From assembly GCA_036785375.1 (NCBI GenBank), contig JAWMAR010000129.1, positions 5,022,001-5,086,000 on the forward strand: a stretch of 64,000 bases of DNA, in the 5' to 3' direction. The notes under the pieces are model-generated. The model did not search any database, was not told the DNA's origin, and saw nothing but the letters and a program-made list of their open reading frames with translations. Of the stretch, positions 2,011 through 63,012 are shown in pieces. The position numbers and the translations under genes are program-made. Position 1 is the stretch's first letter. Each line of letters starts with the position of its first letter. Source of the stretch: Leucoraja ocellata. Its lineage: Eukaryota.

Positions 2011-2313
2011 AATTCCTAATAGTGCAGCTTTGGCCCTATATGTCTGTGCTGAACATGATGCCAAGCTAAACTAATCTCCTCTGCCTGCACAGGATGGATC
2101 CATTCCCTGCAAATCCACGTGCTTCTTAGGTCATAAGTGATAGGAGCAGAATCAGGCCATTCGGCCCATCAAGTCTACTCTGCCATTCAATCATGGCTGA
2201 TCTAACTCTCCCTCCTAACCCCATTCACCCATAACCTCTGACACCCGTACTAATCAAGAAGCCTTTGAACATCACTATCATGTTTGCCTCCACCACCACC
2301 TTCCATGTGAAAA

Positions 2314-2481
2314 TCCTGAGGTAGACAAAAATGCTGGAGAAACTCAGCGGGTGAGGCAGTATCTATTTCGGCCCGAAACTTTGGCTATTTCCTTCGCTCC
2401 ATAGATGCTGCCTCACCCGCTGAGTTTCTCCAGCATTTTTGTCTACCTTTGATTTTCCAGCATCTGCAGTTCTTTCTTAAA
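2314..2481. mobile_element. Fold-back non-autonomous Penelope-terminus element with 10-bp TSD
   Basis: Inverted arms GTAGACAAAAATGCTGGAGAAACTCAGCGGGTGAGGCAG / CTGCCTCACCCGCTGAGTTTCTCCAGCATTTTTGTCTAC; CATGTGAAAA duplicated at 2304-2313 and 2482-2491. Confidence 0.75.
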
Positions 2482-2732
2482 CATGTGAAAAACCAGTCCT
2501 GGACATCTCCTTTCACCTTTGCCTCTTACATCTCGAAGCTATGCCCTATGGTCTTTGACATTTCCACCTTGGGGAAAATGGTTCTGACTGTCCACCCTAT
2601 CGATGCCACACTAACATTTTGCACACATGTTTGCAGCCAATACTGTGAGCCTTTTGAGGGGACACTATTCCGTGTTGGTTCTGTATGCCACCGCGGTTTA
2701 GCAGGTCAAAAGGGTGAAATCTGATTTGGACT

Positions 2733-3005
2733 GTGGAGATACAACAGAAACAGGCGCTTCGGCCCTCCGAGTCCGTGCCGACCAGCGATAACTCTGTACA
2801 CAAACACTGAGGAAAAATTACAATATTTACTGAAGCCAATTAACCTACAAACCTGTATGTCTTTGGAGTGTGGGAGGAAACCGGAGCACCCGGAGAAAAC
2901 CCACGAGGAAAACGTACAAACTCCGTGTGGGCGGCACCTGAGGATTGAACCCGGGTGTCTTGCTCTGTAAGGCAGCAACTCCACCGTTGCACCACCATGC
3001 CGCCC
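2733..3005 (-). mobile_element. tRNA-derived SINE (HE1/V-SINE type)
   Basis: Same head, core and tail as the other copies. Confidence 0.8.
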
Positions 3006-3214
3006 TCTGGGTGGTAGTTGGGTTTCTGACGCTTGTTAATCCCAATCCAGCGGGAAGTCTCTGGTCATCTCAGAGAAATCCGCCATGAGGCTGCCACATC
3101 ACTGATGGCTCTGCCCCTGATCAATGCTGTGGAGCAATCGTGTCCTGGGAAGTGGAAAACTCCTCTAATGTCATGTTTAACAAATGATGGCTATTGGAAA
3201 TTGATGAGGGCAAT

Positions 3215-3573
3215 TGATGGAGCATCCATCACCTATGGATGATATCAAATGCATTGACTACTGAGATGAGAAATAGGGGGTAGAATTTTAGTTCAAATGA
3301 CAGGTGGGGACTGGGAGCGAGCAGGTTAGTGAGAGATTTGAATGGAGTAAGAGAGATAATGCATCAGAAACGTTGTGCGACCCTCACCAGGTCTGTAGTT
3401 CTCAGGGTCGCACAACGTTTCTGATGCATTATCTCTCTTACTCCATTCAAATCTCTCACTAACCTGCTCGCTCCCAGTCCCCACCTGTCATTTGAACTAA
3501 AATTCTACCCCCTATTTCTCATCTCAGTAGTCAATGCATTTGATATCATCCATAGGTGATGGATGCTCCATCA
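3215..3573. repeat. Perfect inverted repeat, 170-bp arms with 19-bp spacer
   Basis: 3215-3384 is the reverse complement of 3404-3573; spacer CACCAGGTCTGTAGTTCTC. Confidence 0.95.
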
Positions 3574-5992
3574 GTGGAGAACTTCTGAGATCAGGACTTT
3601 ACAGTTGGAAGCCATAGTGCTCAAAGTAGTCATTAGCATTGAGAGAGATAGAAATGAACAGCTGATTGATTGAACAACTGAAAGGTACAGTATTTTTGGT
3701 GAATGTTAGCTTTTGGAATGGCCCAAGAACCAGACACACGTGTCCCTTCTTCAGACTGATTGTAGTTCCAACTTTCTCTGTCCCTACTACAAGGGTCCTG
3801 ACCTGAAACATCGCCTATCCATGTTTCTCGAGAGATGCTGTGTGACCTGCTGAGTTACTCCAGCGCTTTGTGTCTTCTTTGTATCCAGCATCTGCAATTC
3901 ATTGTGTCCATAGGAATAGCTGAGCCTGGAGGTAACAAAGGCATATATACTGACCTACTGATCGGTATGCAGAGGACGCCTTAAATTGAATAATAGGTCA
4001 CCCTTCAACACGGTTTCCTAATGAGGCACTTTCTCACACACTCATGACATAGACATTGCTAACAGAAGCTGCTGCCTTTAGCCTTTCAGATGTTGTTCTC
4101 AGTGGGAATTTAAATGTTCAATTCTTTGTATTTAAGGTATACACACAAATCAGGACACAACATGTCTTGAAGAGCGATTTAGAAAGGAATGATAGTTGTA
4201 CAGTTCCCTTTTATTTTTCACTACTGTGATGAGGAATGTTTGATGTTTGATGTAATTGCTGCTTTGCTCTGTGCAGGAGTGTAATTCTGTAGCTCATTAG
4301 GACCGATGCAAATATTATTCTGCAGAAATGAAATACGACCTGACAGCTGATGTTACGTCTGCCACGTTAAAGCAGTCGTACCGACCATAATTTACAGAGC
4401 CCAACAAAATATGTTATCTCATGTAAAATAATTCATCCAAACACATCAGTGGAACGATTCCTCACCAATCTTACATTCATTAGCATGCTGCATGAGTAAG
4501 TTGTGTAGAGTCAGATTGTTACCACATTTTCTGGCGAATAGCTTTACGTAGGGTCAAAATGTAACACCGTTTGAGTTTAGTTTAGTTTATTATCATCTTT
4601 TTACCGAAGTACAGTGAAAATATTTTATTGCGTGCTAACCAGTCAACGGACAGACAATACATGATTACAATCGAGCTATCCACAGTGTACAGATACATGA
4701 TAAAGGGATTAACGTGAATAATGTTTACAGTATATAATATATTCTTAACACTTCTTAGTCATAGAGTCATACAGCGTGGAAACAGGCCCTTCCATGCAAC
4801 CTGCCCATGCTATCCAACATACCCCATCTGCACAGGTCCCACCAGCCTTTACTTGGTCCATGATCACAATGAATGGGTCAAAGGGCCAAATGGCCTCCGC
4901 CTGCACCTATTTTCTATGTTTCTGTAACCCACTAAACCTATTCCTTCTCTCCAGAGATGCTACCTGTCCCGCTGAGTTACTCCAGCTTTTTGGGTCTATC
5001 TTAGGTTTAAACCAGCATCTGCAGTTCCTTCCTACACAAACCTATCCGATCTTTGTACCTGTCCAAATGTCTCCTAAACCTTATGATAGCACTTGCCTCA
5101 ATTACCTCCTCTGGCAGCTTGTTCCATATACTCACTACCCTTTATGTAAAAAGATTACCCCTCAGATTCATTTTAAATTTTTCCCGCTTCACCTTCTCAC
5201 CTTATCTCATAAACAATAGGATCAATATTTTTATTTCAATAAAAGTTAAAATGTAGTACCTGTATTAGAGGGGACAAATTAGGGTGAAGAGACACAGAAC
5301 TGGAAAGCATTTAGAGGAAGTTAAAAACTCAAAATCTGAAAATGCCTGATATGTAAATAGAACAGAACAGGACAGCAGTAGAACAGGCCCTTTGGCCCAA
5401 AATGTCCACACCAGAAATGATGCCAGGTAAAACCTAATCTCCTCCGCATGCACATGATCCACATCCCTCCATTCCCTGCATATCATTGTGATTATCTAAG
5501 AGCCTCTTAAACATCACTATTGTATCTGTTTCCACCACCACACCTGGCAGCATGTTCCAGGCACTGAACACGTCCTGTATTTAAAAAAAACCCAACCTTC
5601 AAACTTTGCCCCTCTCACCATAAAGCTATGTCCTCAAGCTACCGTTGCACCTCTGTTTAATTTTATTTAGTTTAATTTAGCTTAGTTTAGTTTGGTTTAG
5701 AGATACAACATAGAAACAGGCTCTTCGGCCCACCGAGTCCATGCCAACCACTGACCACCCGTTCACACACGTTCTATGTTATCCCACTTTCTCATCCACT
5801 CCCTAGGGGCAATTTACAGAGCCAAGTAACCTACAAATCCGCACGTCTTTGGTATGTGGGAGGGACACTGGCGTATTTAGTAAGAATTATGCCACAGAAA
5901 GCATGCAATGATGATGAAGGAAATGTCATACTTCGAAATTTGCTTCAATCTGACTATCGTCCATTAATTAGTCCAAGGAATGTGTAGTCGTA

Positions 5993-6270
5993 TGGCACCA
6001 CAGTGATGCGTGGTAGAATTACAGCGCCAGAGACCTGCGTTTAATCCTGTCTGTGAGTGCTGTCTGTACGGTGTTTGTAAGTTCTCCCTGTGATCACGTG
6101 GGTCTTCTCCGGGTGCTCTGTTTTCCTCTCGCACTCCAGAGATGTACAGGTTTGTAGGTTAATTGACCATTAAAATTGTAAATTGTCCCTATTGTATGAT
6201 AGTATAAGTGTATGGGGTGATTTCTGGTTGGTCGAAGGGCCTGTTTCCGCGCAGTATTTCTAAAGTCTAA
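5993..6270 (+). mobile_element. tRNA-derived SINE (HE1/V-SINE type), diverged
   Basis: Degenerate tRNA-like head, core GTACAGGTTTGTAGGTTAATTG, tail GAAGGGCCTGTTTCC. Confidence 0.7.
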
Positions 6271-7699
6271 AGAAAGGTCTCAACCCAAAAGGTTGCCTGT
6301 CCATTTCCCTCCACAAACTCTGCCTGACCCATTAAGTTCCTTCAAGTTTGTTTTTGCTTGAGATTCCGGTATCTGGAGTCTCCTGTGTCTCTGTAATGAA
6401 GAAACAAACAGAGAACTAGAGAACAAGAGGACCCTCCCTGATGAGGAAGTTATTGCAACCTCATTTAGCTAAATAAATATACCAAGCAAAGCTGGGCCAC
6501 CATGAACTGAATCGGCTTAATGGTGTTGATAAAAGTAACCCCATCATATGGAAAGATGTTGCATTAGGACGACAGTTCGCTAGAAGTACCAATATTTTTT
6601 TTAATAACTTTTCCAGCAGAACCTTGTATGTCCCTAGTGCTGGAGTTAAAGCATGTTGGCTTTCAACAGGTGAATGTGGAAAAACATTTTGCAAATACTT
6701 TATTGTTCATTTGGGGGGTTGTGAAAAAATCTGAAAAGGCTGCAAATCACTATATCAGTTGCAAGGTGGAAATTAAGCCAGTTACATTACCTTTCTTTAC
6801 TGAATAACAAATTTCAATTGCTAATGAAAAAATCACATGAGTTGAAAATAATTTGAATTTGACATTTATTGTAAAATTGGAAAATAGATTCTCCTTTTCA
6901 ATGTTATATTTCGTCCATTTCTTTTTTTCATTGATTCTTTTTTTTACAGGGTACTATGTTTACATATTCTGTTGTGGTACGTACGAATTTCATGGTTCTG
7001 TTTGGGACGCAGGACAATAAAACATTCTTGGTTTTGGACTCTTAAACTTGAAAAAGGAAAGACTATGTTTCATAACATATGGGCTGAGAAGAAACAACTG
7101 CTGGTTTCTCCATTTGAAGCTAATAAGGAAAAGGAACACCTAAATTAAACCCTTCAGTATCAGGTTAGGCGCATAAACTAGCATTTCCATTTCCCGACCT
7201 GCATTGTCAACCTGCCCATTCCCTCACACATGCTGCCTGATCCACTGAGTTCTTCCGACACTTTGTGTTTTGCTGACGATTCCAGCATCTGCAGTTCCTC
7301 CATTCCCATTTCTTCTCTTAGATGTTTATTTTTTGAGATGAAGTAGCCAGTTAAGTATTTCTTAATGCTTGGGTTAGTGATCTGGGCATACATTTAAATA
7401 TCATCAGGGGAAGTACTGAATTTAAATTCAGTTAAAAAATGACTTAGTGTCTTAAAATTTATCGTGTAAAATTAATGGTGTAGCTAGTTGTAAAAATATA
7501 TCTAGTTCATTGAAACTAAAACAGAAAATGTTGGAAGAACTCAACGGAAAATGGAAGTTCAAAAAACTGCAGATGCTGCGAAACTGAGACAAAAGCAGAA
7601 AATACTGAGACAATATTCAGGCAGCATCTGTGGAAAGAGAAACAGTCAACATTTTGGTCTGCGACCATTCATTGGAACTTTCCTTTAACCTTTAGAGAT

Positions 7700-7910: not shown

Positions 7911-8119
7911 TGCATCAGTCGTCTGTATTGTAAAGGCAGTTTAACGGCTTTTATTTAAAAAATAACTAAGCTTCATAGTCCAGGAAGCCGCGAGGAACCA
8001 TGGCCTTCTTAATTTAACTTTGAAAACAAGATACGAGTTGAAGGAAATTGGAAATACATTTTTCATGCACACACAGACAGGAAGTACTTCAGTTTGACCC
8101 GAGGGAATGAATAGATGGT

Positions 8120-8480: not shown

Positions 8481-8969
8481 ATATCTTCATTAGAATTTAA
8501 CTTTCCTGGCACCCCTGTGTCTAACTGACCACAAGAATTACAAATTTACAACAAAGCAGCAACTATGATACCATGAAGTCAGGTCATCACCCAAAGCCTT
8601 TGAAACATTGGTTTTCAAATCCTTGCTGGAGTAATCTTTCAGAAGCTGATAAACCCAGAACCCATTGGTGATAGAAACATAGGTGCAGGAGTAGGCCATT
8701 CGGCCTTTCAAGCCAGCACTGCCATTCAATATGATCATAGCTATTCATCCAAAGTCAGTACCTCGTTCCTGCTTTATCCCCATATCCCTTGATTCCTTTA
8801 GCCCCAAGAGCTAAATCTAACTCTCTTGAATATTAGGAGTCATAAGTAAGGAGTCGTAGAGTAATACAAAATAGAAACAGTCTGAAGCTGGACACAAAGT
8901 GCAGGAGTAACTCAGCGGGTCAGGCAGCATCTCTGGAGGGAAGGAAGAGACAGTCAATTTAAACTCTTT

Positions 8970-11360: not shown

Positions 11361-11702
11361 GTTTGGCCTGTCCTGTGCTTGAAACTGCAATGGCAATGGA
11401 AATGAAGTGAAAATGCAATGAGCTGTTTGGCTTGGGCCTGCCCTGTGCTTGAAACTGCAATGGCAATGGGAATGTAGTGAAAATGCAATCAGCTGTTTGC
11501 TTCAGCCTGCCCTATGCTTGAAAGTGCAATGGCAATGGAAATGAAGTGAAAATGCAATCAGCTGTTTGGCTTGGTCTGCCCTGTGCTTGAAACTGCAATG
11601 GTAATGGAAGTGAAATGAAAATGCAATGAGCTATTCGGCCTGCCCTGTGCTTGAAACTGCAATGCAATTGGAAATGAAATGAAATTAGTTGTTTGGCCTG
11701 CC
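11361..11702. repeat. Minisatellite, about 5 units of 58-70 bp
   Basis: Unit core CCTGCCCTGTGCTTGAAACTGCAATGGCAATGGAAATGAAGTGAAAATGCAAT. Confidence 0.9.
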
Positions 11703-15236: not shown

Positions 15237-15336
15237 CGAAGACTCTGAGGAAGGGTCTCGACCCAAAACGTCGCCCATTCCTTCTCTCCAGAGATGCTGA
15301 TTCACCCGCTGAGTTACTCCAGCATTTTGTGTCTAC
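15237..15336 (+). mobile_element. Single Penelope-terminus unit with degenerate hammerhead core and 14-bp TSD
   Basis: CTGAGGAAGGGTCTCGACCCAAAACGTC core; CTGATAACTCACAT at 15223-15236 and 15337-15350. Confidence 0.75.
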
Positions 15337-15809
15337 CTGATAACTCACATTCTACCCATACAGAAAGTGCATACACTTTGCCAGCTTTGAATTATTTTAA
15401 ACCCTTGTGATTTGATTTTAAATTAATTTACATTTTGATTCTAAATTAACTCGCATCCTTTTCTATTGGCATCAGATGATTGGCTTATAATACAGGAGAG
15501 AAACAGCAGGGGATTTAACTAATTTCAGTTGATCTAATTGACTTGATCTAACTTAATGATTACACCATGTAAAATGGAAACTACGAGACAATAATCAGTA
15601 CTGTATTATATGCACGGTACAGTAATTATTGCACGCAACAATAAAGAAGATTGCTTCAGCTGTAGAAAGTCACTACTCATTAAAATGAACATAACGCACC
15701 ATAATAGAAACACAAGGAACTTCAAATGCTGGTTTACAATAAAAAACACAAAGTGCTGGAGTAACTCAATGGCTCAGGCAGCAGATGTGGAAGGGATGTA
15801 TAGGGAGGT

Positions 15810-16280: not shown

Positions 16281-16514
16281 CTTATACCTTGATGCTCAGG
16301 TTCAGAGCAAAGATACTGGAGCATTTGGTTTAGAGCACTCAGTCACCCTCCACAATTATTTTACAGCGCAAAATTTGACCATTTTGGTGGTTTTTAACAG
16401 ATAAGAAAGTACGCGTTTCGTGTGATAACAGTGTGTGCGGGAGGCTGCCATGTCCTCCAGACAGATTGAGCGTCATGCCTTTTGACCCAATGACCTTGCA
16501 TGCAACCCCCCTAT

Positions 16515-17000
16515 AGGCAACGTTTCAGTTCAGGATCCTTTTTCAAACTGTTCGTAGTAGGGTGGAGAAAACTGGAAAAGTGATGGAGATGGGACAAAGC
16601 CTGGCAGATGGGTGAACAAAGGCTAGAGATGCAAAGGAGACACAAGGGTGTGAGATAGTCAGAAGAGGTGTGAAATGTGAAGTCAGAGGAAGGGATATAG
16701 TTGGAATGAAATGGGAAAATGGGGGGGGGGGGGGGAATTGTGGGAGAAATTGGTGGGCACCAGGGTGGGGCAAGGGAAGGGGAATAGAAACAAGGAACTG
16801 CAGATGCTAGATTACAAAAATAAGACCCAAGGTGCTGGAGTAACTCAGCGAGCCAGGCAACACACTTGGAGAACATGGATAGGTGACATTTCAGTTCGGT
16901 ACCCGCTGAAGAAGAAAGGTCACAACCCAAAACGTCACTTATCCGTGTTCTCCAGCGATGCTGCTTGACCCGCTGAGTTACTTTTGGACTTTGTGTCTGT
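16515..17000. mobile_element. Degenerate Penelope 3' region plus fold-back terminus element
   Basis: GGTGCTGGAGTAACTCAGCG...CTGAAGAAGAAAGGTCACAACCCAAAACGTCAC...CCGCTGAGTTAC. Confidence 0.6.
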
Positions 17001-17732
17001 TTTAGCAACAAATGCCTCGCTTTGTTTGGGAGGGTACATTTAGTGTGGACTTGGCAAGGCCACATTGTGGATATTGGAAATTTAACACGAACAACATTAA
17101 AAGATAGAAATATTGAACAGAATAATATGAGTATTTGATATGTAAAATACTCACATCTTTAAACATCATTTAGCTGCAGAAAATTGTCTATATTTCCTTA
17201 TTAACATCAGGTTAATTGGCCACTGTAGCTTTCCCCTTAGAAAGGTGGGTAGTGGAATCTGGGGGGAAGTTATAGGGGTGTGGGGAGAATACAATGGGCT
17301 TTGAGAAGCATTAACGTAAATAGATGCCTAATGGTTGGCATGGACTCGATGGGGCCAAAGGCCAGTTTCCGTGACGTTCTATTATGCAACTGAAATTATC
17401 TTGAGTATAATTTTTATTTCAATTCTGCGACTTGGCTGTAAATTAACTGTGTACATTTCTGGTATTTTAGTTATGCATTACATTAAAAAAATATGTTGTT
17501 ATTTAATCCGAGTGGAGAAATGCACATTCGAGAGACACAGGAGATGGAAGATGCTGGAATCATGAGCAAAACACAAAGTGTTGCTGATGCGTTTTTAAGG
17601 CAGAAATAGATAGATTCTTGATTAGTACGGGTTATGGGGAGAAGGCAGGAGAATGTGGTTGAGAGGGAAAGATAGATTAGCTATGATTGAATGGCGGAGT
17701 AGACTTGATGGACCGAATGGCCTAATTCTACT

Positions 17733-18212
17733 CAAATTGGAGGAACAGCACCTCATATTTTGCTCAGGCAGCGTTGATTTATTTAAGTAACTCCTGCATT
17801 CCTCTCCCCACCTCCCCCTCGCCCTCCCCCTCGCCCTCCCCCTCGCCCTCCCCCTCGCCCTCCCCCTCGCCCTCCCCCCCTCTCCAGTCATCCTACTATT
17901 TCCACTGTTCGCATCCTTTATCCCTGTCGTTAGCACATCATCCGCAGCCAACAATGGGCCTTTATGGACTCCACTCTTCCTGTGGTCTTCAGTTGCCAGC
18001 CCAGTTTTGTTCTGGTCTTCTCGATCTTTCAACTCCTCTCTGAGGAATTGTCTGGACCTGAAACGTCTCCCATTCCTTCTCTCCAGAGATGCTGCCTGTC
18101 CCGCTGAGCTACCAGCTTTTTGTGACTATCTTCTCTATCTTTCAGTCTGAAGAAACATCACCTATTTAGAGATGCTGCATGACCCACTGAGTTACACCAG
18201 CATTTTGGGTAC
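17733..18212 (+). mobile_element. Degenerate Penelope 3' end containing a 12-bp tandem repeat (CCTCGCCCTCCC)n
   Basis: AAATTGGAGGAACAGCACCTCATATTT (KLEEQHLIF) followed by the 3' UTR and two terminal units. Confidence 0.65.
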
Positions 18213-18221
18213 CTTTCCATG

Positions 18222-19265: not shown

Positions 19266-19437
19266 TTCCATGGACTATGTTCTGTGAACTGTAGCACTTT
19301 GTGTCTTATTTTAAAATAAAACGGCATCTGCAGTATCTTGCTCCTACCTCTGCTGCCCCTTGTTTGTTGCTCCTACCTCTGCAGTTTCTTGTTCCTTACA
19401 TCTGCAGCTCCTTGCTGCTACATCTGCCACTCTTTGT

Positions 19438-20843
19438 TGCCACATCTGCAGCTCCTCACTGCTACATCTGCAGCTCCTCACTGCTACATCTGCAGCTCCT
19501 CACTGCCACATCTGCAGCTTCTCACTGCAACATCTGCAGCTCCTCACTGCCATATCTGCAGCTCCTCACTGCTACATCTGCAGCTCCTCACTGCCACATC
19601 TGCAGCTTCTCACTGCAACATCTGCAGCTCCTCACTGCCACATCTGCAGCTCCTCACTGCTACATCTGCAGCTCCTCACTGCAACATCTGCAGCTCCTCA
19701 CTGCAACATCTGCAGCTCCTCACTGCCACATCTGCAGCTCCTCACTGGCACATCTGCAGCTACTCACTGGCACATCTGCAGCTCCTCACTGCAACATCTG
19801 CAGCTCCTCACTGGCACATCTGCAGCTCCTCACTGCCACATCTGCAGCTCCTCACTGCAACATCTGCAGCTCCTCACTGGCACATCTGCAGCTCCTCACT
19901 GCAACATCTGCAGCTCCTCACTGGCACATCTGCAGCTCCTCACTGCCACATCTGCAGCTCCTCACTGGCACATCTGCAGCTCCTCACTGCCACATCTGCA
20001 GCTCCTCACTGCCACATCTGCAGCTCCTCACTGCAACATCTGCAGCTCCTCACTGGCACATCTGCAGCTCCTCACTGGCACATCTGCAGCTCCTCACTGC
20101 AACATCTGCAGCTCCTCACTGCAACATCTGCAGCTCCTCACTGCCACATCTGCAGCTCCTCACTGCCACATCTGCAGCTCCTCACTGCCACATCTGCAGC
20201 TCCTCACTGCAACATCTGCAGCTCCTCACTGCCACATCTGCAGCTCCTCACTGCCACATCTGCAGCTCCTTCCTCACTGCAACATCTGCAGCTCCTTCCT
20301 CACTGCTACATCTGCAGCTCCTCACTGCAACATCTGCAGCTCCTTCCTCACTGCCACATCTGCAGCTCCTCACTGCCACATCTGCAGCTCCTCACTGCCA
20401 CATCTGCAGCTCCTCACTGCTACATCTGCAGCTCCTCACTGCCACATCTGCAGCTCCTCACTGCCACATCTGCAGCTCCTCACTGCCACATCTGCAGCTC
20501 CTCACTGCAACATCTGCAGCTCCTCACTGGCACATCTGCAGCTACTCACTGCTACATCTGCAGCTCCTCACTGCCACATCTGCAGCTCCTCACTGCCACA
20601 TCTGCAGCTCCTCACTGCCACATCTGCAGCTCCTCACTGCCACATCTGCAGCTCCTCACTGCCACATCTGCAGCTCCTCACTGGCACATCTGCAGCTCCT
20701 CACTGCTACATCTGCAGCTCCTCACTGCCACATCTGCAGCTCCTCACTGCCACATCTGCAGCTCCTCACTGCCACATCTGCAGCTCCTCACTGCCACATC
20801 TGCAGCTCCTCACTACCACATCTGCAGCTCCTCACTGCTACAT
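19438..20843. repeat. 22-bp minisatellite, about 64 units
   Basis: Unit CACATCTGCAGCTCCTCACTGC with variants (GCC/GCA/GCT/GGC; occasional extra CCTT). Confidence 0.97.
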
Positions 20844-20975
20844 CCCCTAGCTGCTCCATGGCCAACTGCGGGGTCGTTCATTACTTTTGTTTTCTTGTTC
20901 TTGCCGTAGTGGGGCTGCGGCTGCGCCGGCGCACTGCGCCTGTGCCGCTGCTGCCAGTGAGCCGCCGCCGCCGCC

Positions 20976-21286
20976 ATGTCGTACGTGTTCATCAACGACT
21001 CTAGCCAGAGCGGGGTGCCGCTGCTACAGGCCTGCATGGACGGCGACATCACCTACTCCAAGCGGCTGCTGGAGAGCGGCTTCGACCCCAACATCCGCGA
21101 CGCGCGGGGCCGTAGCGGCCTTCATGTGGCCGCCGCCCGCGGCAACGTCGACATCTGCCGCCTGCTGCACAAGTTCGGCGCCGACCTGCTCGCCACCGAC
21201 TACCAGGGCAACACAGCGCTGCACCTCTGCGGCCACGTCGACTCCATCCAGTTCCTCGTCTCCAACGGCCTGAAGATCGACATCTG
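20976..21286 (+). CDS. ANKRD46: Ankyrin repeat domain-containing protein 46, coding exon 1
   Basis: MSYVFINDSSQSGVPLLQAC...GLKIDI matches the ANKRD46 N-terminus; GCC-rich Kozak context; acceptor at 20909, donor GTGGGT at 21287; 311 nt, phase 2. Confidence 0.97.
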
Positions 21287-43285: not shown

Positions 43286-44164
43286 CATATGATGGAGATT
43301 GTCCAAGGAACTGCAGATGCTGGAATCCTGCGTAGAACGCAAAAATTGCTAGCTAGAGTAACGCAGCAGGTCTAGCCACATTTCTGGAGAACATGGACAG
43401 GCAGCGTTTTGGTTCGGCATTCTTCTTCAAACTCGAGAAGAAGAATACATCATCTATCCTTGTCCTCCAGAGATGCTGCCTGACCTGCTGAGTTACTCAA
43501 GCCCATTGTGTTCTTGATCATTTTTTCAGGATAGGAACCTTCCTGATATTGTTTTTCTGTTCTATCCATAATATCCATAAATGTTTCTGGTTCCAAATAA
43601 AGTCAATCCCCTGCGTTAACACCACGGAGAGGGTTAGAGAATTCCACAGATTCATCACCCCTTACGTGAAAATGTTGCTGCTTATTTTGGTCCTAAATGG
43701 GCAAACCACTATGGGTTTAGCTATTCCTGGAGGTAATACGATAGTCGTACAGCACAGAAGCTGTCCCTTCAGCCACCATGTCCATGCTAACCCTTTTGTC
43801 CATTTGCACCATATATCAGCATGTAACCCACTCTGCAATATAATAACTAATTTTATATTTAGTAAGCCCCAGAATTTAAAATCTACTTTTAAGGAAATAA
43901 GCAGTTATTTAAAAAACTAAGCAGTGCATGAATCAGATTTTATTTGAGATTGCCTCTGTGCAGTGTCTTGCTTTATTTTACCATATTAAAAGAATAATCA
44001 TGATGTTGCAGTCTGTGTTGACTCTGAATGACTGATCCAATATATCCCATTGGGTTTAAAGCAAAAAAACATTTAAATAATGTAATGTCTGTTTGTTTGT
44101 TTACATTAAGTGTGGTGATATTTCCCCAACAGCCCACTTATATGAAATGTGAAATGCTTCCTAA

Positions 44165-44605
<441 letters not shown>

Positions 44606-44800
44606 TAGCTATTTCCAAGGTTTTGTCCATCGGCCCTGATGTCTTGGTGCTGCTCCGTACAAACTGTGCTACATGGTTACTCTTGGATAATTTTGAAGCA
44701 TTTTACTTTGTTAAAGGCATTTAATAAATGCAAGTTAATGTTATTAATACATGCATTGCAGTGCTGTGTGTGGCTCTGTAAAATGTTAGAATAAGAATAA

Positions 44801-45083
44801 GGGGCGGCACGGTGGCCCAGCTGTGCCAGAGACCCGAGTTCGATCCTGACTAACAGTGCTACCTGTACAGAGTTTAGACATTCTCCCCGTGACCACGTGG
44901 GTTTTCCCCGGGTTTTCCTCTCGTAACCCAAAGACGTACAGGTTTGTAGGTTAATTGGCTTCGGTAAAGATTGTAAATTGTCCCTAGTGTGTAGGATGGT
45001 GTTAGTGTATGCGGATTGTTGGTTGGCATGGACTAGGTGGGCCAAAGGGCCTGTTTCCTCACTGTATCTCTAAACTAAACTAA
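44801..45083 (+). mobile_element. tRNA-derived SINE
   Basis: GGGGCGGCACGGTGG head, GAGTTCGATCC B-box, (CTAAA)n tail. Confidence 0.85.
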
Positions 45084-45095
45084 TTAAACGTTCTG

Positions 45096-46258
45096 TTTAA
45101 GAGGGAACTGCAGATGCTGGAGAATCGTAGGTTACACAGAAAAGCTGGAGAAACTCAGCGGGTGCAGCAGCATCTATGGAGCGAAGGAAATAGGCAACGT
45201 TTCGGGCCGAAACCCTTCTTCAGACTGATCAGGGGTGGGGGTGGGTGGGGACAAGAAAGGGAAAAGGAGGAGTAGCCGGAAGGCTGGAGGGTGGGAGGAG
45301 ACAGCAGGGGAGCTGAGGAAGGGGAGGAGACAGCAAGGACTAACAGAATTGGGAGAAGTCGATGTTCATGCCCCCGGGGTGCAGACTCCCCAAACGGAAT
45401 ATGAGGTGCTGTTCCTCCAATTTCCGGTGCTGCTCGCTGTGGCCATGGAGGAGACCCAGGACAGAGAGGTCAGAGGCGGAGTGGGAGGGGGAGTTGAAGT
45501 GCTGAGCCACCGGGAGGTCAGCTAGGTTATTGCGGACCGAGCGGAGGTGTTCGGCGAAACGATCGCCCAACCTCCGCTTGGTCTCACCGATATAGATCTG
45601 CTGACATCTAGAGCAGCGGACGCAATAGATGAGGTTGGAAGAGATGCAGGTAAACCTCTGTCGCACCTGGAACGATTGCTTGGGTCCCTGAAAGGAGTTG
45701 AGGGGGGAGGTAAAGGGACAAGTGTTGCATCTGCTGCGGCCGCAAGGGAAAGTGCCCGGGGAGGGGGTGGACCGAGAGGGAAGGGAAGAATTGACAAGGG
45801 AGTTATGGAGGGAGCGGTCTTTGCGGAAGGCAGATATGGGGGGAGATGGGAAGATGTGGCTAGTAGTGGGGTCACGTTGGAGGTGGCGAAACTGACGGAG
45901 GATTATTTTTTGTATGTGATGGCTGGTGGGGTGAAAGGTGAGGACTAGGGGGACTCGGCCCTTGTTGCGAGTGCGGGGATGGGGAGAGAGAGCAGTGTTG
46001 CGGGGTATGGAAGAGACCCTGGTGCGAGCCTCATTTATGGTGGAGGAGGGGAACCCCCGTTCCCTGAATAGTGAGGACATTTCAGATGTCCTGGTGTGGA
46101 ACGCCTCATCCGTGGAGCAGATGCGACGTAGACGGAGGAATTGGGAGTAGGGGATGGAGTCCTTACAGGAAGCAGGGTGGGAAGAAGTGTAGTCCAGATA
46201 GCCATGGGAGTCAGTGGGTTTGTAGTGTATGTCGGTTAGAAGTCTATCACCTGCAATG
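45096..46258 (-). mobile_element. Penelope-like element, 5'-truncated (RT thumb and GIY-YIG), with an inverted terminal unit at 46335-46455
   Basis: ORF 45340-46284 has TDIHYKPTDSHGYLDYTSSHP, SIPYSQFLRLRRICS and IYCVRC...IYIGET; hammerhead core on the minus strand at about 45197-45224. Confidence 0.92.
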
Positions 46259-46603
46259 GTTCTGATTGACTTAAACCAGATCAACCATGATTATCATAGA
46301 ATCAATCTTTCGGTACCAGAACAACTCTGAAAAATGATCCCGACTCGAAACGTCACCTATTTCCTTCGCTCCATAGATGCTGCCTCACCCGTTGAGTTTC
46401 TCTAGCATTTTTGTCTACCTTCGATTTTCCAGCATCTGCAGTTCCTTCTTAAACTAAACTACAATGCCTTTTAAACGTTGCTGTTGTATCTGACTCTACT
46501 ACCTCTGGTGGCTTAGTCCATATACTCACTATCAGATTGAGGCCAAATGCAAATTGGAGGATGATTTCGCTTTGGCATCTTACAACCCAGTAAATTGAAT
46601 ATT

Positions 46604-47119: not shown

Positions 47120-48036
47120 TAAATTGAATATTGACTTCTCTAATTTCAAGTAACCCTTGCATACTCTCCCTCCCCGTCCCTCCCCAAACACGCTAGTTGG
47201 CCTGCTAGTTTCATTGTTAGTATCTGCTCGTTATCATTTTTTGCACAGCCAACAATTGACCATTGTGGACTCTACCTTTCCTTGATCATCGTTGCTTTGA
47301 TTTGCACTTTTCATGCCTCTCATTCATTTGTTCTTTGTACCATTTCATACCTCTACTTTCCGTCTCCCCTGACTCTCAGTATGAAGGAAGGTCTCGTCCC
47401 AAAACGTCACCTACTCCTTTTCTCCTGAGATGCTGCCTGTCCCGTACTGGATTCCCCCGCCCTTAGCAAAAGATCTAATCTATTCTTTGAATGGGCCTGG
47501 TAACGGCCACCACCATTCAGCCTCCTATATTCTAGTGAGAATTAACGCAGCCTCTCCAGTCTTTCCTTCTAATTACAGCACTTCATTTCCAGACATCATT
47601 CCTGGTGGACTTCTTCTGGAGTGCCTTTATTGCTACCACATCTTCCTGAAGTGTGGTGACTAGATGTGTACACAATACTCCCAAGAGCAGTCTAACCAAT
47701 GTTTTGTACAGCTGCAATATGATGTCCCAAGTTTAGTACTCAATGTCTTGGTCAATGAAAGTAAGCATACCAAATGCCTTTTTCTCTACCCTCTCCACTT
47801 TCATGGAACAATGTACTTGCACCCCCAAGGTCTCTCTGTACATCAACATTGCCACAGTCCCTGCCATTTATTCTTTATGCCCTACCAGAGTTTGACTTTC
47901 CAAGGTGAATTACCTCGTATGTGTCTGGATTAAATTGGGATTAACATAGATGGGCATCATGGTTGGCATTGGGCGAGGTGGGCTGTAGGATCTGTTTCTG
48001 TGCCAAGCCATTCTACGATAAAAATTACTTTAAACA

Positions 48037-50354: not shown

Positions 50355-51545
50355 CTCATTGCTGGAGCCGCTGCTCTTCGCGCTGTATATTAATTATTTG
50401 GATGAGGGGATTGAAGGCTTTGAGGATGATACGAAAATAGGTGGAAAGGCAGGTAGTGTTGAGAAAGCAGGGAGTCTGTAGAAGGACTCGGATAGGTTGG
50501 GGGAGTGGGCAGAGAAGTGACAGATGGAATATAGTGTAGCAAAGTGTGGATTCATACATTTTGGTGGTAGGAATAAAGGCGTAGACTATTTTCTAAATGG
50601 GAAGAGAATCCAGATATCAGAGGTGCAAAGGAACTTTGCAGTGCTGGTGCAGGATTCCCAAAAAGCTAACGTCCAAGTCGAATCGGTAGTAAAAAACGCA
50701 AACACAATGCGAGCAAATATTTCGAGAGGGCTTGTATACAAAAACAGAGATGTAATGCTGAGGCTCTATAAGGGGCTGGTCAGGCCACATTTGGTGCAAT
50801 TTTGGGCACCGTATCTGAGGAAGGATGTGCTGGCTCTGGAGAGGGTCCAGAGGAGGTTTACAATACTGATCCCAGGAGTACTATAAGTAGGTTAACATAT
50901 GATGAGCATTTGACGGCACTGGGCCAGTACTTGCTGGAATTTAGAAGAATCGGGGTGGATCTCATGGAAACATACAAATTAGTGAAAGGCTTGGATAGAA
51001 TGGATGTGGAGAGGATGTTTCCACTCCTGGGAGAATCTAGGACTAGAGGTCATAGCCTCAGAATTAAAGGACGTTCTTTTAAGAAGGAGATGAGGAGGAA
51101 TTTCTTTAGTCCGAGGGTGATGAATCTGTGGAATTCTTTGCCACAGATGGCTGTGGCGGCCAAGTCAGTGTATATTTTCAAGGCCGAGATTAGATAGATT
51201 CTTGATTAGTACAGGTACAGGAGGTTATGGGGCGAAGGCAGGAGAATGGGGTTTGGAGGGAGAGATAGATCAGCCATGATTGAATGACTGAGCAGACTTG
51301 ATGGACCTAATGGCCTAATTCTGCCCCTATCACGTGATCTTATGAAAAGGTTGGTGGGTGTATGGAACAAACTGCCAGAGGTGTGAGTTGAAGCTGGGAC
51401 TATCCCAACGTTTAAGAAACAGGTACATGGAAAGGACAGGTTTGGAGGGATATGGGCAGGTGGGACTAATATAGCTGAGGCATGTTGGCCAGTGTGGGCA
51501 AGTTGGACCAAAGGGCCTGTTTCTACACCGTATCACTCTATGAAC
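50355..51545 (+). mobile_element. CR1 LINE, degenerate RT C-half and 3' tails
   Basis: ORFs 50524-50886 and 50802-51197 carry CR1 motifs. Confidence 0.85.
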
Positions 51546-52185: not shown

Positions 52186-52415
52186 TAGACACAAAATGCT
52201 GGAGTAACTCAGCGGGCCATGCAGCATCTCTGGAGAAAAAGGATGGGTGACGTTTCAGGGTCGGGACCTGTCATCAGACTCCTTAGTCTGAAAAAGGGTC
52301 GCGACCTGAAATGCCACCCATCCTCTCTCTCCAGAGATGCTGCCAGACCCGCTGAGTTACTCCAGCACTTTGTGTCTATCTTTGCCATATACCAGCATCT
52401 GCAGTTCTTTGTTTC
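52186..52415. mobile_element. Fold-back Penelope-terminus element with hammerhead-like cores on both strands
   Basis: Arms span 52186-52378; minus strand CTGATGACAGGTCCCGACCCTGAAACGTC, plus strand CTGAAAAAGGGTCGCGACCTGAAATGCC (degenerate). Confidence 0.75.
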
Positions 52416-52480
52416 TACATTGAATCCAATGGCCCAGATTAAACACGATATGCAGATGCCGAAAAGGATTTGTAGCCTGA

Positions 52481-53713: not shown

Positions 53714-53989
<276 letters not shown>

Positions 53990-55099
53990 TAATGAAACAA
54001 ATGTCTTTACACAGTAAATGTATGCCTGTGGCAATAGCTACCACGGCACAAAGTGCTGGAGTAACTCAGCGGGCCAGATAGCATCTCTGGAGAGCATAGG
54101 TAGGTGATGTTCTGGGTCAGGACTTTTCTTCAGACCTAGTCCTGAGCTAGTGATAGCCATGCTATCGTTACTGTTCATTGTCTTTTTCCTACAGTGACAA
54201 TAAATATGTCTGCAGTATAACTTAGTTTGTGGACAAATGATTCAAATTATTATTTTTTTAAATCACTATTAGTTGTGTTGGTGATCCTTTTTTAGTTTGG
54301 AGATACAGTGCAGAAACAGGCCCTTCGGCCCACCGAGGCTGAGCTGACCATGGATCACCCTGTACACTAGCACTATCACTAGGGCCAATTGTCCCTTCAC
54401 ACTGGGGACAATTTACAATTTTACTGAAGCCAATTAACCTACACACCTGTACATCTGCAGTGGTTTGTGCATAGGGATAGTGCATGAGCATGTAGCGATC
54501 GCTGGTCGATGCGGGCCAAAGGGCCTGTTTCCGCACTGTATTTCTAAAAGTCTAAAAGTTTTTAAAGTATTCCTAACTAATTTAGTCATTTTAAAAAAAG
54601 GTGAATTTTGGGATTCAAAACAGAATATGCTGACAATGCAGTTTCTGAGGAAAGGTCATCAAACTCTAACACTAACACGCTCTCACCCCTACGGGTGTCA
54701 GGTTATGGGGAGAAGGCAGGAGAATGTGGTTAGGAGGGAAAGATTGATCAGCCATGATTGAATGGCGGAGTAGATGATGGATCTCATGGCCTAATTCTGA
54801 TCCTATCACTTATGATCTTAAGGTCTCTCTTCAGTTGCTAACTGACCTGAGTAGCTCCAGCATTTCCTGCTACTTCAAATTTAGTTGCTTCTTTTTGTTG
54901 CTTTTTAGAAAATGTAAGATGTAAGAATGATTTATTTGCAGTTATAACTATGTTGAGGGTCTTTATGAATGTGTTTTTGGGTTGCTGATGTAACCGCAAA
55001 ACTGATTCTATGCTTCTGATCTTCTGGAAACTCTAACCCAGCACATCATCAGCATGTCGAAGTGAAAACTTTGAAATCAACTCCCCCGTGAGTATAGTG

Positions 55100-55334
55100 T
55101 AGAAATGAACTGCAGATGCTGGTTTATAGCGTGGATAGACACAAAATGCTGGAGTAACTCAGCGGGTCAGGCAGCATTTCCGGAGAAAAAGAATGTTGGA
55201 ACCCTTCCTCAGACTCAATGGGTGACGTTGGGTGACCGAACCTGAGGGAACGGTTCCCACCTAAAACGTCACCCATCCTTTTTCACCAGAGATGCTGCCT
55301 GACTCGCTGAGTTACTGGGCATTTTGTGTCTATC
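55100..55334. mobile_element. Fold-back Penelope-terminus element
   Basis: GATAGACACAAAATGCTGGAGTAACTCAGCG ... CGCTGAGTTACTGGGCATTTTGTGTCTATC. Confidence 0.75.
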
Positions 55335-55454
55335 TCCCTTGAACAGTTGTTTGCGGATTTGATGTTGGTAATTGTTTAAGATTGTCACATTGTCATGCGT
55401 ACTGCAGTACAGTGAAAAACGTCACCAAGTGGCACTGAACTCCCAATCACCTTG

Positions 55455-55772: not shown

Positions 55773-56216
<444 letters not shown>

Positions 56217-59624: not shown

Positions 59625-60796
59625 TTGATACAAATACATCGATAGATGCTCCTGAACACATCATCAGTGATGTAACCTGGGGTCATTAGGTGTTTCGGGT
59701 CTTTCAACATCAGACACCCTCACCCAGGCGACCCAGCCGTGGTTGATCAGACCACGACTTGTGTTCAGGTGGCATTCGCTCTTCCCCATGGACCTCCTCT
59801 CCTGATCCAGATTCATCTCGAGGCCTTCTCCGCTGCCTCTGTGGTGTTCTTGATGGCCTTTCTCCTTGCCACTCCGTTTATGCCCAGTGCACTCAAGGCT
59901 TTGTAGAGCGATTGCCCTGCAAAACCTCTGCAGCCAACCTCGATGGGCATACACCTTGCCTTCCAGCTCTGCTTGCGGCAGTCTATGACCAGCTCTTCAT
60001 ACTTGGCCATCTTCCTCTCGTGGGCCTCCTCCAGACGGTCCTCCCAAGGCACAGTCAGTTCCAACAAGACGATGTTATTGGTCGCCTCTGAGACCAGGAG
60101 GATATCTGGCCTCAGGCTGGTCGTGGCAATGTGCCGTGGGAACTTCAGCTGTTTCACCAGGTCTACGGAAAGCTGCCAGTCCTGCGCAGTCGCCAGGATT
60201 CCTGACAGATTCCAGGCTGCTGTGGTTCTTGGCAGCTGCACTCCGGCCTTCATGAAGGCGATCGTCTGGGTGGTGGGGCATGCTCGCCTGCAGCTGCTGA
60301 TTCCCATGCTGATGGCTTCTGCAATGGGTTTAAGAACCTGGTCGCGACGCCATGTGTACCGGCCCTGCCCAAGAGTCTTTGGGCAACAGCTCAGGATGTG
60401 TTCCAACGTCCCCTTGCCTGAACATTGCGGGCAATCTGGAGATTCCGCTTTGCCCCAGATGAAGAGGTTCGATGGGCTGGGCAGGACATCATACACTGCC
60501 TGGACCAGGGACTTGATGCGCTGTGGTTCAGCCTGCCAGAGCTCAGTCCATGTGACTTTTCGGTCCATGGCCTGCGCCCACCTTGTCCAGGCCCAATGCT
60601 GCCTCAATCCAACTGCTCTGGTAGACCTCTCCTCCTCCACCACTGCCCTCACTTCCTTCTGGACCAGCCTGCGCCTCTCCTTCCCCTTGGCCTTGTCAAA
60701 CTGGGGAGATGGGAAGATTCCCAGGCCAGCTCTTCCCCGAGTCACTGCTCCCACCAGGATTCTGTGGCGTATCCGAGAATCTGCTTGCAGCACGGC
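59625..60796 (-). mobile_element. RLE-type non-LTR retrotransposon (HERO/R2-like), 5'-truncated, 22-bp TSD
   Basis: CPQCSGKGTLEHILSC zinc knuckle, RRDQ, RPDILL, LLELTVPWE, KMAKY and IEVGCRG motifs; TTCATTAAAAAAAATACCACCA at 59603-59624 and 60797-60818. Confidence 0.88.
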
Positions 60797-60847
60797 TTCA
60801 TTAAAAAAAATACCACCAAGGTCCATCAAGTTTGTCATCTGCCATTT

Positions 60848-61136
60848 GGACAGCACGGTGGCGCAAGGTGAAGTTTGTGCCTTACAACGGCAGGGACCCA
60901 GGTTCGATCCTGACTACGGGTGGTGCCTGTACGAAGTTTGTATATTCTCCCTGTGACCTGCGTGGGTTCTCCCAGATCTTTGGTTTCCAAAGACGTACAA
61001 GTTTGTAGGTTAATTGGCTTGGTATTAATGTAAAATTGACCTGACTGTGTGTACGAAGGTTTGGTGTGGGGATTCTTTGGTCGGTGCGGACTCGGTGAGC
61101 CGAAGGGCTTGATTCCGAGCTGTATCTCTAAACTAA
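60848..61136 (+). mobile_element. tRNA-derived SINE
   Basis: CACGGTGGCGCAAGG head, GGTTCGATCC B-box, tail. Confidence 0.85.
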
Positions 61137-61597
61137 TCCTGTTAGTCATACGTTGCAACATTGTTGTTGAGTAATTATAGTAAATCTATTATTAATATGA
61201 AACAGATGCTGAAATGACCATGTGGGAAAACTCCTGGGGTTAGCCAAAGTTGAATGTCTCCCAAACAAATTTGGGGTGTGTTCCAAATCACTTGTGTGAT
61301 TGTTACCTGAAAGAACTCTACGTTGCATTAAAATTAATCAATGCAATCTCCTATGATCGCCTCCATAGTGTGTCTCTTCTATAGATTCAACTATGGTACT
61401 GAGAATTATTTCATGGTTTGGCATCTTGTCACATAACATTCTGAGATCGTTCTGATATTAGCTGAACAAAAATCACTTGTATTAGGATTTGCACTAAAAA
61501 ATATTTTGTTTCGTATAACAAAAGTAAGTAGGGAAATCTGAAAATGGGGTATACAATGGCATTAATGAAAAGTGGTGAACAATATAAGATTGGCATT

Positions 61598-62020
61598 GAA
61601 TGCTGGAGTAACTCAGCGGATTAGGCAGCATCTCCGGAGAAAAGGAATAGGTGATGTCTCGGGGCGTGACCCTTCTTCAGACTGAAATGGGGGAAACGGA
61701 AACTAGAAGTATGAAAAGGTACAGAACAAATCGGTGTCTGCACCGATGGCTAAAGAACCCACACTACTCCATTGTTGGCTGTGCAGGTGATAATGAAGAA
61801 ATACAATGAAACTAGCAGGGCAACTAGACTGCGGGAGGGATGGTGAGAGAGGGAATGCAAGGGTTACTTTAAATTAGATAAACAAATATTCATACCACTG
61901 GGTTGTAAGCTGCCTAAGCAATATATGAGGTGCTCTTTCTCCAATTTGTGTGTGGCCCCACTCTGACAGTGGAGGAGGCCCAGGACAGAAAGGTCAGTGT
62001 GGGAAGGGGAAGGTGAGGCA
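61598..62020 (-). mobile_element. Old Penelope 3' fragment
   Basis: SPSHTDLSVLGLLHCQS...KLEKEHLIYCLGSLQPSGMNI plus a terminal unit with CTGAAGAAGGGTCACG. Confidence 0.75.
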
Positions 62021-62837
62021 AAACGTTTGGTGAACAGGTGATCGATGGTCAGCATGTACTCTGAGCTGCAGGGCGTGTTTGCATACTGTCTAAACTAAAA
62101 ACTGAAACTTAAGGCAAATAGCAGAAAGATGGTAAGATAGAACAGAGAACAGTGAAGTACAACAGGCCCTTCAGCCCACGAGGCCTGTACTGAACATAAT
62201 CCTTACCTAAACTAATCCTTTTCCCTGCATGTACTCCATATGCTTCCATTCCCTGCATATTCATGTGTATATATTAAAGCCTCTTAAACAACGCTTGTAT
62301 CTATGATATCCGCCAACCGGTATAACTATTCAAAATCATGAAGGATTGTTTCCGCAGGTACACAGAAAATGCGAAGGACAACTGAGGTTTAAAAAAGAGA
62401 ATGGAATGTTTTGTCACAAGCAAACGATGTGAGAAGCAATTTAATCTTTAAAGACAGATGCACTTTTTGCTGGTAAGTATTTGAAGAAGAAATAGGCACA
62501 GTCGTAGGAAGAAAGCGGGACAACGGGATTTGTTTTAGTGTTCTCTCAAAAGATAAAATTACTGTGTTGTGTGGCCGCCAACTGTATTGAGATATTGTCT
62601 TTCAAAGAGAATGCAGGACTCAGCGATGGAACAGTAGAAACCTTCTCCATCGTGGCACAATATTACGGTTAATCCAGGAGGTCACTGGAATGATGTATTG
62701 TACTCTCTCCGACTCCCTCGACCAGCTCAGCCCACGAACCATCCCCCTCACCCGACCGCCTCTGTGTCCCGGGGGCACCTCCTGCAACCGATCTTGAAGA
62801 TGCTGGAGACAATACCCTCTCCTACCAGCCCACTAAT

Positions 62838-63012
62838 TGACGTTTTCACATCGGGACCCTTCTTCAGACAGATTGGAGAATTCACTGATGAGTCTGAAGA
62901 AGGGTCTCGACTAAAAAAGTCACTCATTCCTTCTATCCAGACATGCTGCTTGACCCGCTGAGTTACTCCAGCTCTTTGGGACTTTTTTTGTAAACCACCA
63001 TCTGCAGTTCCT
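62838..63012. mobile_element. Penelope-terminus element with back-to-back hammerhead-like cores
   Basis: GGGACCCTTCTTCAGAC ... GTCTGAAGAAGGGTCTCGAC; tail CATCTGCAGTTCCTT. Confidence 0.6.

Follow-up and report, generated by a model that had tools for sequence, protein, structure and literature searches.

Short fold-back and solo copies of a Penelope-like element terminus in Leucoraja ocellata as probable by-products of insertion

A 64,000-nucleotide stretch of the Leucoraja ocellata genome (GenBank assembly GCA_036785375.1, contig JAWMAR010000129.1, positions 5,022,001 to 5,086,000 of the forward strand; hereafter, the window) carries numerous short non-coding inserts, many of them inverted pairs, that resemble the end of two coding copies of a Penelope-like element (PLE). 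These inserts raise the question whether they form a family that replicates in its own right, as proposed in a first-pass annotation that described a retrozyme-like parasite mobilised in trans by the PLE, or are residues of insertion by the PLE itself. Here, we report that the elements are real, dense and of a known kind, that is, ordinary PLE debris, and are not retrozymes by the definition tested. In all likelihood, the short elements do not form a family that copies itself; each would be a single, dead product of insertion by one of several Neptune-like PLE families, and the best overall explanation, which we consider probable, is that they are short run-off by-products of PLE insertion. 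All counts refer to this single window.

A profile hidden Markov model of the terminus matched 49 arms that cover 4,343 bp, or 6.8% of the window (26 arms on the plus strand and 23 on the minus strand), with no matches in the reversed sequence that served as the control. The short inserts do share the terminus of the coding copies, as had been claimed, with 58–90% identity to it. Manual grouping yielded 35 loci, two of which contain coding sequence, and the unit density is about one per 1.3 kb. Positions are numbered from +1, the A of the AGT that precedes the CUGA box, so that the hammerhead cut site follows +31. Two fixed 3′ ends, separated by about 35 nt, occur among the arms: the untailed ones stop near +94 to +98, within the same few bases (16 shown), and the tailed ones stop near +130, with at least four tail types discernible by eye. 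A conserved stem-loop linking the two 3′ ends was considered and rejected (RNAalifold found 0 pairs on 21 tailed arms, and 16 single folds gave z from −0.6 to +0.8).

Among the 13 neighbouring arm pairs no more than 60 bp apart, 11 are head-to-head, two are tandem and none is tail-to-tail; addition of the remnant at 3731–3912 and of a composite insertion at 45083–46455 brings the total of head-to-head structures to 13. The tail is one-sided in nine of these, two-sided in four and absent in none. The seven fold-backs singled out in the first-pass annotation all proved to be head-to-head arm pairs where it had placed them, and the rod-like folding it described was recovered in 10 of the 10 fold-backs tested (z from −5.2 to −19.0 against mononucleotide shuffles). 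The fold-backs, which have arms on both strands, are listed with their target-site duplications (TSDs); numbers with a plus or minus sign in brackets are the 5′ ends of the arms.

2319–2483: fold-back, untailed minus arm (+49) and tailed plus arm (+15); 10-bp TSD 2304/2482; arms 43/44 identical
3731–3912: fold-back, remnant of a deleted minus arm and tailed plus arm reaching into upstream PLE sequence
16782–17003: fold-back, tailed minus arm (+12) and untailed plus arm (+4); old, with 70% identity between the arms; no flanking TSD detected
21362–21506: fold-back, both arms tailed (+67, +53), without hammerhead sequence
21709–21908: fold-back, untailed minus arm (+1) and tailed plus arm (+30); 11-bp TSD with 1 mismatch, 21698/21910; interrupts a dispersed SINE-like repeat
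22510–22692: fold-back, tail sequence in both arms, internal deletions; 12-bp TSD 22498/22693
36146–36337: fold-back, untailed minus arm and tailed plus arm with deletions; 15-bp TSD 36131/36338
42746–42861: fold-back, tailed minus arm (+70) and untailed plus arm (+43), without hammerhead sequence
43302–43515: fold-back, tailed minus arm (+1) and untailed plus arm that mirrors, in its first 10 nt, variant bases of the partner itself
52186–52419: fold-back, both arms from +1 with a 4-nt filler, minus arm untailed and plus arm tailed; degenerate 16-bp TSD (3 mismatches) 52170/52417
55098–55336: fold-back, tailed minus arm (+1), 25-nt filler partly templated by the terminus, untailed plus arm (+4)
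62795–63020: fold-back, rearranged minus arm (−4) and tailed plus arm (−6)

All 13 of the 13 head-to-head junctions differ in the stop points of the arms and in the filler, the result that the first-pass annotation itself had named as refuting a replicating retrozyme-like family, and that claim is not supported in the window. All-unique junctions are improbable for up to 20 equally common masters (P = 0.006) and not for 50 or more (P = 0.18), the test having power for at most about 25 masters. A small replicating family is therefore unlikely; a very diverse one is possible, as is a subset of repeated junctions elsewhere in the genome.

The second line of evidence comes from the ribozyme. The minimal hammerhead in the terminus of the coding copies is of type I; it has a stem I of 2 bp, a bulged A, a stem II of 4–5 bp and a palindromic stem III with no loop. 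A descriptor consisting of the core boxes, stem II, stem I and the palindromic 15.2–16.2 pair, with a background of 0.04 matches per shuffle, found three intact motifs, in both coding copies and in one short arm.

31271–31302, plus strand: intact minimal hammerhead motif, by descriptor
45194–45225, minus strand: intact minimal hammerhead, by descriptor, identical in sequence to the 31271 motif
21772–21803, minus strand: the sole non-coding arm that passes the descriptor, with one stem II mismatch

Rfam gave no match to a hammerhead family in either the whole window or the coding terminus alone; its 11 and 5 matches, respectively, were all below gathering scores and are attributed to hairpin shape or chance. 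The description of the elements as hammerhead-bearing applies, then, to the ancestral sequence and the coding copies, not to most of the copies. In the non-coding arms, the hammerhead core columns are 87.1% conserved, compared with 88.0% for the downstream block and 73.5% for CpG columns, and no compensatory changes were found in 17 arms (76.2% paired versus 77.2% in shuffled ones). The core is thus no better conserved than the downstream block, and no sign of selection on the ribozyme was seen in inserted copies. The hammerhead appears to be a passenger that decays after insertion, its intact form representing the ancestral sequence.

No fold-back has two intact cores, and two contain no hammerhead sequence at all; in the fold-back at 52186–52419, the minus arm retains intact core boxes with a 3-bp stem II, and the core of the plus arm is changed. 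In monomer folds computed without tertiary contacts, constraining the RNA to the ribozyme fold carries a penalty of 13.0 and 36.7 kcal/mol for the two best fold-backs, compared with 6–7 kcal/mol in the coding terminus. An inverted pair offers one sense core per RNA strand, which is predicted to pair with its complement, so that the rod would bury the hammerhead; the suggestion of ribozyme cores in both polarities was not upheld. Minimal hammerheads are reported to depend on another motif in the same strand; as monomers, they gave no cleavage in vitro (PMC4209133).

Rod folding, independent TSDs, high density and the minimal hammerhead in the parent terminus would all suit a non-autonomous family of retrozyme-like fold-back RNAs, copied in trans with working hammerheads in both polarities, and animal retrozymes are indeed related to the pseudo-long terminal repeats (pLTRs) of PLEs (10.64898/2026.07.22.740005). 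A retrozyme comprises at least two head-to-tail units with complete hammerheads, and the window holds two tandem pairs, neither of them intact, and no tandem array of the unit; the definition fails because there is no tandem pair of intact ribozymes. Combined with the unique junctions, the fold penalties and the lack of compensatory change, this leaves such a family very improbable.

Insertion by the PLE machinery, in agreement with the earlier proposal, is indicated by variable TSDs and the PLE-specific tail. At 31 loci, flanking direct repeats were compared with the 95th percentile of 287 control sites: 12 loci have repeats above this threshold, of 8–16 bp (the repeat at 7516, which overlaps the element, is doubtful), and 19 have none. 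The four TSDs previously named, of 10 bp (2304/2482), 14 bp (15223/15337), 12 bp (22498/22693) and 15 bp (36131/36338), are exact. One insert splits another repeat, as had been noted: removal of 21709–21908 restores a repeat, which may be a V-SINE (short interspersed element), with eight uninterrupted copies in the window. The empty-site test was informative for one of 12 inserts. The right TSD copies at 31363, 46450, 2482 and 15337 start in an overlap of about 2–5 matching bases with the 3′ end of the element, which may reflect microhomology at priming; in an in vitro study of an anole PLE, priming occurred without homology (PMC11167929).

These duplications also dispose of an ordinary miniature inverted-repeat transposable element (MITE) with terminal inverted repeats. 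The elements are short, inverted, non-coding and numerous, as MITEs are, but the TSDs vary from 8 to 16 bp where the first-pass annotation had taken a fixed length as the mark of a MITE; moreover, the arms are unequal, solo arms are equally common, and the sequence is the terminus of copies that encode GIY-YIG. Because of the variable TSD length, a MITE is refuted in the window, and we assign it a negligible probability. The solo, tandem and partial units are as follows.

4936–5038, plus strand: solo tailed unit beginning about at the hammerhead cut site; 8-bp TSD 4934/5038, which overlaps its 5′ end
6264–6391, plus strand: solo tailed unit, old; 5′ end ambiguous with respect to adjoining short repeats
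7193–7305, plus strand: solo tailed unit; 12-bp TSD with 1 mismatch
7516–7675, minus strand: two decayed units, head-to-tail
8887–8951, minus strand: solo untailed unit, 5′ end near +34
15237–15337, plus strand: solo untailed unit from +1; 14-bp TSD 15223/15337
15704–15804, minus strand: solo tailed unit
16513–16641, minus strand: hammerhead part with upstream PLE 3′ untranslated region (UTR), downstream part missing
17549–17583, minus strand: tail-side fragment, weak (E 0.16)
18039–18216, plus strand: two untailed units head-to-tail, neither hammerhead intact
19288–19339, plus strand: tail fragment just ahead of a 22-bp minisatellite
23255–23383, minus strand: solo tailed unit from +1; 10-bp TSD 23246/23385
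33243–33334, minus strand: solo tailed unit, old
33509–33607, minus strand: solo untailed unit, old
39867–39936, plus strand: partial unit
44452–44583, plus strand: solo tailed unit from +1; 9-bp exact TSD 44437/44586
47340–47444, plus strand: unit with upstream 3′ UTR in common with the 61.6 kb copy, downstream part missing
54047–54136, minus strand: solo untailed unit starting near +2
54832–54873, plus strand: weak fragment (E 0.027)
61582–61944, minus strand: longer decayed copy with the end of the open reading frame (ORF) region, 3′ UTR of a second family and untailed terminus
63101–63176, plus strand: decayed partial unit

What, then, is the parent element? Coding sequence is present at two loci.

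30404–31367, plus strand: 5′-truncated coding PLE copy with linker zinc finger, GIY-YIG, 3′ UTR and untailed terminal unit; 16-bp TSD 30388/31363
45083–46455, both strands: composite insertion of a 1.13-kb tailed coding arm (minus), a filler of about 70 nt (46250–46323) and a tailed short arm from a sister subfamily (plus, 46324–46455)

The ORF fragments at 30419–31156 (plus) and 45340–46290 (minus) both finish in a GIY-YIG domain, with a weak Pfam match (E 0.0015–0.0023) under the curated cut-off. They match 43 longer proteins, mostly with RVT_1 (the best at 50% over 306 amino acids), and the top identities, 65% and 62%, are with bamboo-shark proteins over no more than half of the query. Over 942 bp, the two copies share 98.2% identity; the "coding Penelope copies" of the first-pass annotation are genuine PLE C-terminal coding sequence, but both are 5′-truncated, keep about 300 C-terminal amino acids or less and lack the reverse transcriptase (RT) core. 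At its 5′ junction, the first copy has 16 bp in direct duplication (30410–30441), probably through RT slippage. Besides the C-terminal GIY-YIG, the features of endonuclease-containing (EN+) PLEs found here include a 30–40-nt tail on some ends, an inverted 5′-truncated copy and variable TSDs. The ORF contains a CX4CX2C linker motif and cysteines between the two GIY-YIG motifs; a CX2-5CxxC linker together with CCHH-type cysteines inside GIY-YIG is the Neptune criterion, and the linker motif also occurs in Nematis (PMC8557442). The parent would accordingly be classed by its motifs as a Neptune-like EN+ PLE, with the proviso that the linker is common to Nematis.

If the short copies are by-products of this element, the points at which they end should be informative about the reaction. 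In 13 of 31 arms, the 5′ end, placed by hand and defined by the partner arm or TSD, falls at +1 to +4 (0 of 200,000 uniform simulations), after exclusion of 19 of 50 arms, 5 of them long and 14 with an unclear boundary; a strict subset of seven arms gives P = 9e-5 in a 2-nt window and 0.022 at the most lenient setting. Clustering of 5′ ends at the hammerhead cut site was rejected, being no greater than expected by chance (3/31, P = 0.92). In copies that continue upstream, the base before AGT is C in eight of nine, giving TCAGT, which resembles the initiator consensus. In the 10 copies that stop there, it is G in six, A in three, T in one and never C, an excess of G with a post hoc P of 0.010. 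An extra G before +1 is expected from copying of the cap and marks capped full-length L1 insertions (PMC11702581), and pLTR promoters with an initiator have been described (PMC2377424, PMC3846280). We lean towards the reading that +1 is the capped transcription start of the PLE mRNA. The manual placement and the exclusions tell against it, as does the fact that six of the 13 clustered 5′ ends have a mismatch or start at +3/+4.

The same reading has to contend with a polypyrimidine tract and an AG directly upstream of +3 in the long copies, which would fit a splice acceptor behind a very short or foreign first exon; an intron in D. virilis ends at helix I (PMC4209133). A splice acceptor, or else a ribozyme pause, would fix the 5′ point without a transcription start. 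Nevertheless, the short arms have no common upstream exon sequence and their fillers are mostly 0–7 nt, and the lack of a significant cluster at the cut site argues against pausing; we find either origin decidedly improbable.

A fixed point at the 5′ end and two at the 3′ end, together with the great excess of short copies over long ones, could alternatively reflect SINE-like monomers, that is, one or more short masters starting at +1 and mobilised in trans by the PLE, with fold-backs forming singly at insertion; non-autonomous PLEs (PMC8557442) and trans mobilisation by a pLTR (PMC3846280) have been described. In the tree of the arms, in which four of 36 branches are well supported and 22 are open, long and upstream-extended copies are interspersed among the short ones, with five label changes, a number no higher in 116 of 500 shuffles, and several subfamilies, in which long copies also occur, show the same arm ends. 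Furthermore, the copies that stop at +1 are without the two upstream bases that complete the initiator-like motif, and all lack the RNA downstream of the tail required by the anole PLE (PMC11167929), so they should be poor templates. This alternative is, in our judgement, unlikely. (No tRNA genes were found in the window, a result that does not bear on SINE heads.)

We return to run-off by-products of the PLE itself. The anole PLE, studied in vitro, nicks the two target strands and extends both, and its RT begins copying at two internal sites, one at each boundary of the tail; ribozyme cleavage is dispensable, RNA beyond the start site or tail is needed, and a dimer is predicted (PMC11167929). 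By analogy, a PLE mRNA that starts, capped, at the initiator at +1 would be copied from two internal sites about 95 and 130 nt from its 5′ end. Because these sites would lie so close to the end, RT would usually run off, yielding a cDNA similar to a strong-stop product, sometimes with an extra cap-derived G, or would drop off earlier. Extension of one target strand would give a solo unit; extension of both, followed by end joining of the cDNA 3′ ends with microhomology or filler, would give a head-to-head fold-back, often with a one-sided tail, and the two cDNAs could derive from different RNAs. That the fold-backs arise by two-strand priming rather than by snap-back of the first cDNA is the option towards which we incline. 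The fuller proposition, that the tiny copies record the PLE reaction, with strong-stop cDNAs of capped mRNA integrated and a dimeric enzyme priming both strands on separate RNAs, even of different subfamilies, is offered tentatively.

The composite at 45083–46455 bears directly on this proposition. It is flanked by a single 12-bp TSD (45071/46450), with a 12-nt filler at its left end. Its long arm is identical to the other coding copy at 91 of 91 positions and to its own partner arm at 74 of 91; identity is 95.9% between the partner arm and the 2.4 kb element, and 88.9% between that element and the long arm. The composite thus seems to join arms of two subfamilies inside one TSD, and the simplest reading of these sequences is that two RNAs were used in one event. 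The 70-nt filler is loosely palindromic, and a search for its source in the window gave matches at E 0.48 or worse; the left-end filler (45083–45094) has nine bases in common with the sequence just past the right TSD. In the open-access literature searched, we found no description of an insertion combining two subfamilies or of a sharp 5′ end at +1 to +4, nor a statement of the strong-stop, two-RNA reading.

With the same by-product origin, the inverted arm could instead be made by self-priming, the first cDNA snapping back, or on an antisense template. Snap-back has been proposed for PLE palindromic junctions (PMC3846280) and has been observed in R2, chiefly once the cDNA is full-length (PMC11371274), and in two elements the arms are 98% and 93% alike. 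It leaves unexplained why untailed arms end where solo copies end, how arms of different subfamilies come to share a TSD, and why both-tailed pairs have differing tails; as the general origin of the fold-backs we think it rather unlikely. The two routes are not mutually exclusive, and some arms, such as that at 43305, may have formed by snap-back.

Several observations weigh against two-strand priming and, more broadly, against dead run-off products. The second arm at 43305 mirrors the variant bases of the first, and in eight of 12 pairs both arms rank the partner in the top five. The one-tail pattern is a trend only and not significant (permutation P = 0.12), and a tail on exactly one arm was rejected as a rule on the same test. 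In the composite, both arms are tailed and the 70-nt filler is without explanation, and the structure could alternatively be a later insertion beside an older arm. The in vitro data come from a Poseidon element, not a Neptune-like one. Thirteen junctions from one window are compatible with at least 50 masters (P = 0.18), and in a rotifer the pLTR sequence alone is reported to be sufficient to mobilise a gene in trans (PMC3846280).

The surroundings are animal intronic DNA, with two plus-strand host exons amid fragments of CR1-type RT.

20961–21344, plus strand: host exon of an ankyrin-repeat protein
44165–44608, near 44190, plus strand: host exon of the TMEM185 family
1216–1791, 36628–38477 and 50521–51197: fragments of CR1-type long interspersed elements, with an RVT_1 match at 37599–38474

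A fold-back lies 75 bp downstream of the apparent donor site of the ankyrin exon. The 22-bp minisatellite (65 copies, 19398–20844) starts about 60 bp past the PLE tail fragment at 19288–19339 and stops about 130 bp short of the ankyrin exon's ATG; its unit contains the tail core motif with one change, and it may have been seeded by the tail. A near-perfect palindrome of 144 bp at 3322–3466, unrelated to the PLE terminus, has weak matches to microRNA models and is possibly a true MITE. At 59813–60913 (minus strand), there is an open frame of 366 amino acids without a Pfam match; its cysteine and PDL...ELT-like motifs presumably resemble the nuclease end of a non-LTR element with a restriction-like endonuclease. 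A 69-bp tandem repeat of 4.7 copies occupies 11365–11684.

Correct annotation of such elements is worthwhile because the hairpin shape alone draws weak matches to microRNA precursors, and the rods could be mistaken for MITEs or viroid-like RNAs. Located in host introns or close to them, the rods may also provide editing or small-RNA pathways with double-stranded RNA. The origin of PLE inverted repeats and tails has been called unresolved (PMC8557442, PMC3846280), and a genome of this kind offers a natural sample large enough that counts of the 5′ end, the extra G, tail sidedness and arm origin could tell two-RNA priming and snap-back apart. The strong-stop, two-RNA reading, if true, would account by one mechanism for the inverted pLTRs, the one-sided tails and the great surplus of solo hammerheads across animal genomes.

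Among the PLE features already described are inverted copies of the terminus, tails that may be absent and solo termini (PMC3846280, PMC8557442, PMC8969392). With the EN+ elements Neptune and Nematis, the copies analysed here share the C-terminal GIY-YIG with a CX4CX2C linker, 5′ truncation and a head-to-head inverted copy at the 5′ end, as well as a 30–40-nt tail on one end, variable TSDs, solo termini and microhomology junctions; unlike in the EN+ PLEs described there, most insertions consist of the terminal unit alone (100–240 bp). The hammerhead has the conserved core, the bulged base before stem II and the palindromic loopless stem III of metazoan PLE minimal hammerheads, which occur mostly as dispersed single motifs attributed to truncated PLEs; dual motifs on opposite strands, 100–700 bp apart, have already been reported in Schistosoma (PMC4209133). 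Stem I is of 2 bp, as in the D. virilis variant, whereas 4–5 bp are usual in metazoan PLE hammerheads (PMC4209133). Like Poseidon PAc of Anolis carolinensis, the window elements have two 3′ ends that bound the tail, about 65 and 100 nt past the cut site; in PAc, the main RT start lies 85–92 nt past the cut site and both target strands are extendable (PMC11167929). PAc belongs to another clade, and, by comparison, no conserved tail stem-loop was found in the window and no long ORF was seen starting inside the terminal unit. The resemblance to animal non-LTR retrozymes extends to short, non-coding, pLTR-related sequence, type I hammerhead ancestry and TSDs longer than 4 bp, but retrozymes are head-to-tail tandems with complete ribozymes and circular RNA, whereas the window elements are head-to-head or solo, with decayed ribozymes (PMC7229834, 10.64898/2026.07.22.740005). 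Finally, as in L1 twin priming and R2 snap-back, where second priming or self-priming gives a 5′-inverted arm within one TSD and full-length 5′ ends carry an extra G (PMC11702581, PMC11371274), inverted arms share a duplication here; in L1 inversion, another part of one RNA is the template, whereas in these elements both arms are the same terminal stretch copied from fixed starts.

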